Part shown: piece after piece, positions 15,384-18,151 of the stretch
Numbering within the stretch: position 1 is the first letter of the stretch
Layout of the letters: each line of letters starts with the position of its first letter
Origin: an uncultured Candidatus Saccharibacteria bacterium
Lineage (GTDB): Bacteria > Patescibacteriota > Minisyncoccia > UBA6257 > UBA9933
NCBI GenBank assembly: GCA_964488305.1
Contig: CAZAUC010000001.1
Coordinates: 3,305 to 37,761 of the forward strand
DNA: 34,457 nt
Direction: 5' to 3'
The notes under the pieces: generated by a model
Told to the model about the DNA's origin: nothing
The model's database searches: none
Seen by the model: the letters and a program-made list of their open reading frames with translations, nothing else
Translations under genes and position numbers: made by a program

Positions 15384-16145
15384 ATGAAAAATATGGTGAG
15401 CCGCACCCTGTCGGTGCACAAGGAGCACGAGCTCCTACTGAAACTGGAGACCGCAGGTCTCACAGAACCCCTTGCCCAGAAAGTTATTAGCTCGAAGGGT
15501 AACGAACTCGCTGCGAAAGTGGTGAAGTTCATTCAGAACGGCGGCTTTGAACCGACAACCAGCCAGAAGCGTGCCCGTGAAATTATGGGCAAGAACATGT
15601 TCGGTGTCGAGGAAGCTATCCAGTATTTCGGGGTTAACCCGACCCGCCAGCAAACCCTTGTTTTGTCGGAGATTCCTTTCTCTGAAGACGTACTCCAAAA
15701 AGCAAAGGATACTCACGTTCTGATAGCCGTCTTTCCGCTCTCGGTTCTCGAGATTCGCGGGAAAGTGGATTCCAAGTTGTTCTACAGCCAGTCGTGGTAT
15801 AACAAAGAATCATTCGCCAAGGAACGCGGTGAAATAAGTTGGCAACTGGTTCGCAAGACGCCGGTGGACAACTCCACCTCAAAGAACTGGGAAGAGCAAT
15901 TAGTTTTTATTTCAGAAGAGGACGAAGTTCCGACAGCCCAAGTGATGGTTTATACCATCATCGGTCATTATCTGGATACTGGCGAACGTCTGTTCGAGCA
16001 CATCTACGTCCGAACATCATCTGTGGATTCGGATGGCCGCCGTGTTGACGTCGGCAACTTCGTTTCGTATGGTCTCTATGTCAGCCACTACTGGGATGGC
16101 CTCAGCAGTGACGACATCGGTGTCTCGTCCGCTCGGAAGTTCTGA
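15384..16145 (+). CDS. DGR variable (target) protein with C-terminal CLec-like VR and no signal peptide
   Basis: ATG at 15384 is preceded by AGGAGG at 15373-15378. The ORF track instead starts at GTG 15315. The C-terminus ...YWDGLSSDDIGVSSARKF carries the VR. The gene is visibly more G+C-rich than its neighbours. Confidence 0.8.
   Translation: MKNMVSRTLSVHKEHELLLKLETAGLTEPLAQKVISSKGNELAAKVVKFIQNGGFEPTTSQKRAREIMGKNMFGVEEAIQYFGVNPTRQQTLVLSEIPFSEDVLQKAKDTHVLIAVFPLSVLEIRGKVDSKLFYSQSWYNKESFAKERGEISWQLVRKTPVDNSTSKNWEEQLVFISEEDEVPTAQVMVYTIIGHYLDTGERLFEHIYVRTSSVDSDGRRVDVGNFVSYGLYVSHYWDGLSSDDIGVSSARKF
16022..16143 (+). repeat. DGR variable repeat (VR) including the IMH-like 3' end
   Basis: Matches TR at an offset of 484 nt. 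It differs at 16099, 16101, 16102, 16108 and 16113, where TR has A in every case, and at 16139 (G versus TR C). Confidence 0.9.
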
Positions 16146-16505: not shown

Positions 16506-16627
16506 TGTGGATTCGGATGGCCGCCGTGTTGACGTCGGCAACTTCGTTTCGTATGGTCTCTATGTCAGCCACTACTGGGATGACAACAGCAATGACAACA
16601 TCGGTGTCTCGTCCGCTCGGAACTTCT
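16506..16627 (+). repeat. DGR template repeat (TR)
   Basis: Non-coding copy of the VR. It reads GAC AAC AGC AAT GAC AAC where the VR reads GGC CTC AGC AGT GAC GAC. Confidence 0.9.
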
Positions 16628-16686: not shown

Positions 16687-17052
16687 TTATTCTTTTGTTG
16701 ATTTAATCCATCCCCCAAGCATTTTTCCGATTTCCTGCAATTTTTCTTGTAGGATGAGATATTTTTTATTATCCAACGATTTAATTTCATTAGATAATCT
16801 AATTAGTATCTTTAATAAACTGATTTTGGCGTCTATTTTCCTAAGATGCGTTAATTTTTCTTGTTTCGGCAAATAAAAAGTTTTTATTGAAAGTTCTAAG
16901 GTGTCTAAAATTAAATTTTCAATCTTTTGACCCAAAGAATACTTCTCTATTTTCGGGAAAAACCTAACGTAGTCGTGAAATAATTTATAGAATTCACAAA
17001 TCTTATGCACCAACGGCGCATCAAATTTAGAAAATCCTGCGGGGGGGGGCAT
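16687..17052 (-). CDS. avd: Avd-like four-helix-bundle accessory protein (23S rRNA IVS protein family)
   Basis: 121 aa. FPKIEKYSLGQKIENLILDTLE...IGKMLGGWIK matches the four-helix-bundle / DGR accessory variability determinant pattern. The start is ATG followed by C9. Confidence 0.8.
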   Translation of the reverse strand: MPPPAGFSKFDAPLVHKICEFYKLFHDYVRFFPKIEKYSLGQKIENLILDTLELSIKTFYLPKQEKLTHLRKIDAKISLLKILIRLSNEIKSLDNKKYLILQEKLQEIGKMLGGWIKSTKE

Positions 17053-17113
17053 TCATAGAAATAAATTTAAAATTCAAAAATCAAAATGTAAAATTTATGA
17101 CCGAATAATTTCA

Positions 17114-17584
17114 TTGGAAAATTTATTTTTAGCTTGGCAAGAATTCCGGCAAGGTAAAAGAAATAAACAGGATGTTCAAGAATTTGAATTCAATTTGGAA
17201 GACAACCTTTTTAACCTTCACCGAGAATTAAAAGCCAAAATATACCGACATTCTAATTATACCGCATTTTCAATATGTGATCCAAAGCCGCGGCGTATTC
17301 ATAAAGCCTGCGTTCGCGACCGAATATTACACCACGCCGTTTTCCGAATTCTATACCAGATTTTTGACAAAAATTTTATTTTTGATTCATATTCGTGCCG
17401 CTTAGCTAAAGGGACGCACCGCGCAGTAAATAGATTAGGAAAATTTTGCCGCCAAATAAGCAAAAACAATCGCCAAAACATTTTTGCCTTGAAATGCGAC
17501 ATTAAAAAGTTTTTTGATTCAGTTAGCCAAAATATTTTATTAGAACTTATTAAGAGCAAAATCCGAGACGAGAACACTTTATGA
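17114..17584 (+). CDS. DGR reverse transcriptase, N-terminal fragment (ends at the in-frame TGA 17582-17584)
   Basis: ENLFLAWQEFRQGKRNK...DPKPRRIHKACVRDRILHHAV...KCDIKKFFDSV correspond to RT motifs 1-3. The TTG start is uncertain, because the frame stays open and conserved-looking (KIYDRIISL) upstream back to 16991. Confidence 0.85.
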   Translation: MENLFLAWQEFRQGKRNKQDVQEFEFNLEDNLFNLHRELKAKIYRHSNYTAFSICDPKPRRIHKACVRDRILHHAVFRILYQIFDKNFIFDSYSCRLAKGTHRAVNRLGKFCRQISKNNRQNIFALKCDIKKFFDSVSQNILLELIKSKIRDENTL

Positions 17585-17632
17585 TTAATTACGAAAATTG
17601 TTAAAAGTTTTGAAAAAACTAGAAATCAAGGT

Positions 17633-18151
17633 TTGCCTTTGGGCAATGTCACCAGCCAATTATTTGCCAATATCTATTTAAATGAATTAGATCAATTTAT
17701 TAAACATAAATTAAAAATTAAATATTATCTTCGCTATTGCGACGATTTCGTGATTTTAAGCGAAAATAAAAAATATTTAATTGACCTAATTCCTTTGATT
17801 AGTAATTTTCTAAAAGATAAATTGAAATTGATGCTTCATCTTGATAAAATAATTATCAGGAAATACCATCAGGGCATTGATTTTCTTGGCTACGTTATAT
17901 TGCCGCATTACCGCGTTCTGCGGACAAAAACAAAAAGGAAGATATTAAGGAAAATTATCGGAAAAAACAGGGATTTTCAAGACAACCTGATATTCGAAGA
18001 ATCTTTTAACCAAACTTTACAATCTTATTTTGGCGTTTTAAAACATTGTCAGGGATATAAGATTAGACAGAGAATCCTATATTGTTTAAAACAACAAAGT
18101 AGTGGACATTCTCAACAAGATAACCTAAAATTAAACATTGATAATAATTAA
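17633..18151 (+). CDS. DGR reverse transcriptase, C-terminal fragment (same frame as 17114-17584)
   Basis: Contains LPLGNVTSQLFANIYL (the DGR-typical SQ motif 4), RYCDDFVIL (YxDD catalytic motif) and GIDFLGY. The frame is open back to 17585, immediately after the TGA. Confidence 0.85.
   Translation: MPLGNVTSQLFANIYLNELDQFIKHKLKIKYYLRYCDDFVILSENKKYLIDLIPLISNFLKDKLKLMLHLDKIIIRKYHQGIDFLGYVILPHYRVLRTKTKRKILRKIIGKNRDFQDNLIFEESFNQTLQSYFGVLKHCQGYKIRQRILYCLKQQSSGHSQQDNLKLNIDNN

Follow-up and report, generated by a model that had tools for sequence, protein, structure and literature searches.

A consensus in-frame TGA in the reverse transcriptase gene of a DGR from an uncultured Candidatus Saccharibacteria bacterium: a probable nonsense allele with a static VR

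The stretch of DNA analysed here (the window, 34,457 nucleotides) comes from an uncultured Candidatus Saccharibacteria bacterium and carries a compact DGR cassette flanked by a map gene on one side and a GT2 glycosyltransferase gene on the other (Table 1). The protein encoded by the target gene was found by exact-protein look-up to be identical in seven JGI samples and in the NCBI MAG. The TR and the VR at the end of the target gene differ at six of 122 nt; five of these mismatches are A-to-N changes at TR adenines (16583, 16585, 16586, 16592, and 16597), and the sixth is a C/G mismatch at 16623. The product of avd matches the Pfam family bAvd (E 4.4e-21, residues 15–118). The cassette thus shows the features by which a DGR is recognized, namely the motifs [LIV]GxxxSQ and YxDD in the RT, an A-specific TR/VR pair in the 3' end of the target gene, and Avd. 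It departs from a regular DGR in that the RT frame is interrupted by one in-frame TGA and has no canonical start before the conserved core, and in that the consensus VR shows no ongoing diversification across eight assemblies.

Table 1. Positions of the DGR features within the window
Feature	Position	Strand	Description
Target gene	15384..16145	+	253 aa from ATG 15384; alternative GTG start 15315; stop is TGA
VR	16022..16143	+	C-terminus of the target gene, its last 40 codons
TR	16506..16627	+	Non-coding; 122-nt direct repeat of the VR at an offset of 484 nt
avd	16687..17052	-	Inverted, between TR and RT; called ORF of 121 aa
Upstream ATG	17005..17007	+	Conserved; antisense to an Avd His codon; +1 out of RT frame
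Poly-G tract	17041..17049	+	G9; Gly-Gly-Gly in RT frame; G10 in L001
RT, N-terminal part	17090..17581	+	Conserved core residues 1–164; first canonical in-frame start is TTG 17114
RT, first catalytic Asp motif	17486..17521	+	ALKCDIKKFFDS
In-frame TGA	17582..17584	+	Column is Trp in most relatives
RT, C-terminal part	17585..18151	+	Same frame; thumb; stop TAA 18149–18151; invariant residues all kept
RT, DGR motif	17633..17659	+	LPLGNVTSQ, in the C-terminal part
RT, active-site motif	17735..17746	+	YCDD, in the C-terminal part

The called Avd ORF begins with ATG-CCC-CCC-CCC on the poly-C side of the poly-G tract. As the bAvd match starts only at residue 15 and the ATG adjoining the tract is absent from avd in most relatives, the true start of Avd is probably a TTG or GTG at 17013–17008, near the onset of the conserved core.

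Within the open RT frame, which extends from 16991 to 18151, the sole stop is the TGA (...RDENTL*LITKIVKSFEKTRNQGLPLGNVTSQ...), which is the only interruption of an otherwise continuous DGR RT frame of 353 codons. The two called ORFs, 17114–17584 and 17633–18151, share this one frame, and a single Pfam RVT_1 match (E 2.3e-22, residues 68–270) bridges the TGA. The original prediction had described two RT ORFs separated by one TGA, with codons that still resemble RT sequence past the stop; the coordinates, the shared frame, and the peptide context that it gave were all confirmed.

The residue that homologues hold at the stop column, which the original prediction had named as a check, was determined by alignment. 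Among the 208 closest proteins, with up to 79% identity, the column holds Trp in 188, Arg in 10, and other residues in 10, and it is Trp in 53 of 80 genome loci from species-representative genomes, all of them Patescibacteria MAGs. The relatives are single continuous proteins of about 290–440 aa, and no stop was found at this column in any of the 208 proteins, the 80 loci, or about 100 genome matches. The bRT of Bordetella (8ub7) has Arg at the aligned position. Since the column is Trp in 188 of the 208 proteins, and all 208 proteins and the 80 loci read through it, the TGA almost certainly arose from TGG by a third-position G-to-A transition at 17584, a change from CGA to TGA being less likely. 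No near-identical intact RT was found, in that nothing of more than 79% identity spans the site, and the genus of the window genome has no other species representative.

Further assemblies of the population were located by exact-protein look-ups, and the alleles reported here are those of the assembly consensus. The same TGA is present in five further assemblies from other samples or runs, making six in all with the window (JGI 3300031274 for L001; Logan for SRR9700687, L002/L112, for SRR9709000, L113, for SRR8556602, L114, and for SRR8557363, L115). All five further contigs over the site read ...ACTTTATGATTAATT..., and L001 is an independent assembly, since it differs from the window by one SNP (16777) and by G10 in place of G9 at 17041–17049. 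No sense allele was found in JGI metagenome contigs, among which a pattern with the codon left free (GAGAACACTTTANNNTTAATTACGAAAATTG) returned only the known contig. The TGA is thus the consensus allele in several samples and not an assembly error, which is ruled out by its presence in separate assemblies, one of them (L001) differing elsewhere. The population polymorphism and the assembly error that the original prediction had entertained therefore find no support at the consensus level.

TGA serves as an ordinary stop in this genome. In the genome assembly (477 kb, 36 contigs, 95.6% complete), 69 of the 339 ORFs of at least 150 aa (20%) end in TGA, with a median of six codons to the next in-frame stop; in the window, five of 30 genes terminate in TGA, among them the DGR target and the GT2 neighbour of the RT. 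Contig C27 carries an RF2-like ORF with SPF and GGQ motifs, and no tRNA with a UCA anticodon was detected in the genome assembly by ARAGORN. No gene other than the RT contains an internal TGA; two further candidates for TGA-split genes, C13 and C18, were rejected as merely adjacent unrelated genes in one frame. A gene for tRNA-Trp was not recovered from the 95.6%-complete assembly at sensible ARAGORN thresholds, and a very relaxed run gave noise only. The tRNAs for Asn and Asp and several others were likewise not found in this assembly. A tRNA-Phe(GAA) whose anticodon loop is interrupted by a 245-nt insertion is predicted on contig C2 (22332–22649) when ARAGORN is run with introns allowed.

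Apart from the stop, which was set aside in the count, the RT of the window is well preserved. When columns at least 90% conserved among 120 homologues were considered, it deviates at two of 146 columns (P90Q and R284K), compared to a mean of 3.8 in the others. One deviation lies in each half of the RT, both halves being equally intact, and the catalytic motifs are all kept. The lack of decay elsewhere in the RT implies either that the mutation is recent or that the downstream half is still under selection; with the undecayed RT, a very recent mutation and ongoing selection on a read-through product are equally compatible.

Stops are also present in other members of this RT family. In species-representative genomes, a single in-frame stop interrupts about 5% of the related RT copies, at varied columns and with TAA, TAG, and TGA alike (L017, L047, L093 in G224, and L095 in G324; also G262 and G179). 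The contexts in L017, L047, L093, and L095 comprise FDSYSC*SEKG, FIA*SFSCR, CDIR*FFDS (TAG), and a TGA after the YxDD region. Judged from their sequences, these stops at unrelated columns are a background of sporadic pseudogenes.

The VR is letter-identical in eight assemblies, seven from JGI (L100–L106) and the MAG, although as many as 21 SNPs in 6.2 kb (0.34%; L101) separate their flanks. The same six VR/TR mismatches are found in every contig. A sister lineage with approximately 90% DNA identity is represented by two Logan contigs, L098 (SRR27205362) and L099 (SRR27205364). Outside the VR these two contigs are separated by 1 nt in 660 nt, whereas their VRs show at least 17 substitutions and a 12-nt indel. 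The sister VRs lie at 821–942 in L098 and at 1647–1756 in L099, the 12-nt deletion being in L099. All nine TR-to-VR differences in L098 are A-to-N, and the pattern of these sequences indicates recent DGR activity in the sister lineage. The shortness of both sister contigs is what would be expected if heterogeneity in the VR interrupts assembly.

Compared to this sister lineage, the DGR of the window looks frozen, its VR appearing static at the consensus level. The 95.6%-complete genome contains no second RT that could act as a backup and no further TR/VR copy. The invariance of the VR could instead reflect a near-clonal population or purifying selection. We infer that the freeze of the VR is due to loss of the RT; it is not attributable to the TGA specifically, since the upstream ATG is additionally put out of frame by the poly-G tract. 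A recent inactivating nonsense mutation that left a frozen DGR, one of three readings among which the original prediction had made no choice, accords with the Trp found in 188 of the 208 relatives, with the otherwise undecayed RT, and with a VR that is fixed while that of the sister lineage varies.

The TR has also changed. In comparison with the TR of the sister lineage (L098 1305–1381), the TR of the window shows 11 differences in 77 nt, eight of which are at sister adenines, so that the adenine count in the 77 nt falls from 19 in the sister to 11 in the window (binomial p = 0.001 for adenine loss from the TR). At all 11 differing sites the TR of the window equals the VR of the window, and the eight lost adenines lie within 16522–16570. 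This suggests that the 5' 77 nt of the TR were overwritten by VR-type sequence through VR-to-TR gene conversion, and such conversion would strip most of the mutable AAY codons from the template.

The poly-G tract lies 40 nt before the conserved RT core, and a comparable tract (G7–G14) is present in 55 of 80 related CPR loci; wherever the tract occurs, it encodes Gly-Gly-Gly in the RT frame. The ATG at 17005 is +1 out of frame across G9, and G8 or G11 would bring it in frame. Furthermore, the RT has no in-frame ATG, GTG, or TTG between the upstream stop and the conserved N-terminal block. In the related loci, the phase of the ATG relative to the RT is 0 in 14, +1 in 24, and +2 in 12 loci, the ATG being in phase in only 14 of 53, and about half of the tract-bearing loci are without a canonical in-frame start. 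The tract looks like a slippage switch. The possibility that it represents a second genome-specific lesion was rejected, a tract with an out-of-frame ATG being normal in the clade across the 80 loci. A literature search found no relevant publication on poly-G or homopolymer tracts in DGRs. In two of the JGI contigs (L102 and L104), the sequence breaks off within or at the poly-G tract.

Considering these observations together, we favour, with a probability of roughly 75%, a genuine TGG-to-TGA nonsense allele that is fixed at the consensus level, with a dead RT and a static VR. The following course of events may be envisaged. A G-to-A change at 17584 would have converted the Trp codon TGG of the DGR RT into TGA, and RF2 would end translation once the fingers and the motif of the first catalytic Asp (CDIKKFFDS) have been made, at about residue 164–165 of the conserved core. 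The truncated product would be without the template-binding LGxxxSQ motif (LGNVTSQ), the YCDD active site, and the thumb, and, as predicted from this loss, it would be inactive and would not polymerise. Without RT, no adenine-mutagenised cDNA would be made from the TR, and the VR would no longer be rewritten. Without selection for diversification, the TR would begin to homogenise with the VR. The element would be further silenced by G9/G10, which leaves the sole upstream ATG out of frame, and by the loss of the 5' TR adenines.

Readthrough of the TGA, which the original prediction had also proposed, is the alternative that fares best, though only in part. Programmed readthrough or recoding is unsupported, because TGA is a normal stop in this genome, RF2 is present, relatives have no stop at the column, and no stabilising RNA structure lies 3' of the stop, where the MFE fold of 17570–17700 is no better than that of shuffled sequences (z = +1.12). 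Selenocysteine was rejected, the column being Trp and not Cys and no hairpin following the stop. The base after the TGA, the fourth base, is U, which is reportedly the most efficient termination context in E. coli (Poole, Brown, and Tate 1995). What stands of the proposal is a basal leak through tRNA-Trp, whereby near-cognate tRNA-Trp would read the TGA at a low rate and yield wild-type RT with very low mutagenesis, acting on top of the poly-G switch, and the TGA would be tolerated or even useful. The ancestral Trp is exactly the residue that readthrough by tRNA-Trp would insert, the half downstream of the TGA keeps every invariant residue and motif, and tRNA-Trp(CCA) is known to read UGA at a background level in E. 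coli (PMC13092985). However, a stop at this column is absent from the 208 proteins, the 80 loci, and the approximately 100 genome matches, and the sporadic stops of other relatives fall at other columns, irrespective of the stop codon. There is no downstream structure, the fourth base is U, and RF2 is present; furthermore, the VR is invariant in eight assemblies and the TR is eroded. We regard a leak that maintains function in this way as unlikely.

In a more elaborate and more doubtful version, the TGA would be a second leaky gate, in which about 0.1–1% readthrough by tRNA-Trp combined with poly-G slippage would produce few native RT molecules, and these only rarely. Were this true, the target would be hypermutated in infrequent bursts that consensus assemblies would not reveal. 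If low-level readthrough did keep the RT active, this would be informative about the stringency with which cells limit a self-mutagenic enzyme, but none of the present observations argues for it.

A functional split RT, in which the two halves would be made separately, with re-initiation at TTG 17633 or 17639, and would form an active assembly, is very improbable. These TTG codons lie 16–18 codons past the stop, and eight relatives have their RT in two frames, with the break 10–20 codons downstream of the column (L084–L091, in the genomes G036, G078, G069, G148, G390, G282, G085, and G016). However, in all eight the break falls in a (GA)n or (CA)n microsatellite, the shift occurs in both directions, and the second part is often without a start, so that they are frame-shifted single genes and not two-gene systems. 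In addition, all 208 close homologues are single chains, the cut at the TGA parts the first catalytic Asp from YCDD, and no convincing ribosome-binding site precedes TTG 17633. The two halves are not normally separate proteins at this column, which the original prediction had allowed for, as 208 of 208 homologues are continuous. The repeat in these relatives, which is (CA)n in L085, encodes RERERE and lies between the KSF helix and the G[IL]P[IL]GN motif. The corresponding site carries insertions that preserve the frame in other relatives and no repeat in the window.

It is just as improbable that the TGA is an artefact or a minority allele caught by assembly, with a sense codon in the real population: the source samples may share one site or study, and the assemblies would then share one population, but six separate assemblies from different runs or samples and two pipelines (JGI and Logan) all carry the TGA, L001 is a separate assembly by its SNP and G10, and the free-codon scan revealed no other allele. 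Some CPR classes (Gracilibacteria and Absconditabacteria) use table 25. Nevertheless, a code change by which this lineage would read TGA as Trp (table 4) or Gly (table 25), leaving the RT intact, is scarcely credible and is effectively refuted by genome-wide use of TGA as a stop: although the tRNA-Trp gene is missing from the assembly, 20% of long ORFs end in TGA with other stops soon after, table 11 yields full-length genes, the assembly contains an RF2-like gene, a search for UCA tRNAs gave none, and the RT alone has an internal TGA.

Schillinger et al. (2012) reported in the DiGReF survey that some DGR RTs are truncated by a nonsense mutation, a frameshift, or an IS insertion, and that the VR/TR pairs of these DGRs still differ at adenines only, which was read as recent inactivation or possible sequencing error (PMC3521204). 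The nearest case is the DGR of Ruminococcus gnavus ATCC 29149, which, like that of the window, has a premature stop in an otherwise normal RT together with near-pure adenine mismatches (PMC3521204). The window differs from it in that the allele is present in six assemblies, the VR is static in comparison with a varying sister lineage, and the TR appears partly converted to VR sequence; furthermore, the host is a Patescibacteria (CPR) bacterium, avd is inverted, and a poly-G tract lies at the 5' end.

Among solved structures, the best relative is the bRT of the bRT-Avd complex of Bordetella phage BPP-1 (PDB 8ub7), whose DGR has Mtd as its target. The RT of the window is homologous to it (phmmer E 3.3e-40, residues 2–294), and the two systems share Avd, an A-specific TR/VR pair, and the motifs LGxxxSQ and YxDD. 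However, the order in BPP-1 is avd-TR-brt on one strand, whereas in the window avd sits in the opposite orientation between the TR and the RT. At the stop column bRT has Arg, whereas the RT of the window is interrupted, and the host of the window DGR is cellular.

The simple-sequence switches of CPR relatives, the 5' poly-G tract and the internal (GA)n, resemble the present case in that RTs of the same family are off in assembled genomes. In contrast to these readily reversible length changes, the TGA is a point substitution outside repeats, is unique to the lineage, and would be reversible only by back-mutation. UGA readthrough by tRNA-Trp, either of the Hirsh type or with a tRNA-Trp(CCA) that has a 4-bp anticodon stem (PMC13092985), likewise involves UGA where Trp is expected, and reading through would yield the native protein. 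However, the stop of the window is not conserved and has no favourable context or structure, and the genome has RF2 and uses TGA normally for termination.

Cases of this type have been on record since 2012, and the present one amounts to an ordinary loss of function in a mobile accessory element. What is new is the exclusion of sequencing error by six assemblies, the static VR set against an active sister lineage, and the erosion of the TR. A lineage that bears the stop, has an invariant VR, and appears to have an overwritten TR can thus be compared naturally with a sister of approximately 90% identity whose VR is changing. The first steps in the death of a DGR may be on view here, namely a nonsense mutation, the loss of TR adenines via conversion, and a switch tract in the off position. 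For annotation, the locus serves as a warning that interrupted RT genes will be called as two ORFs.
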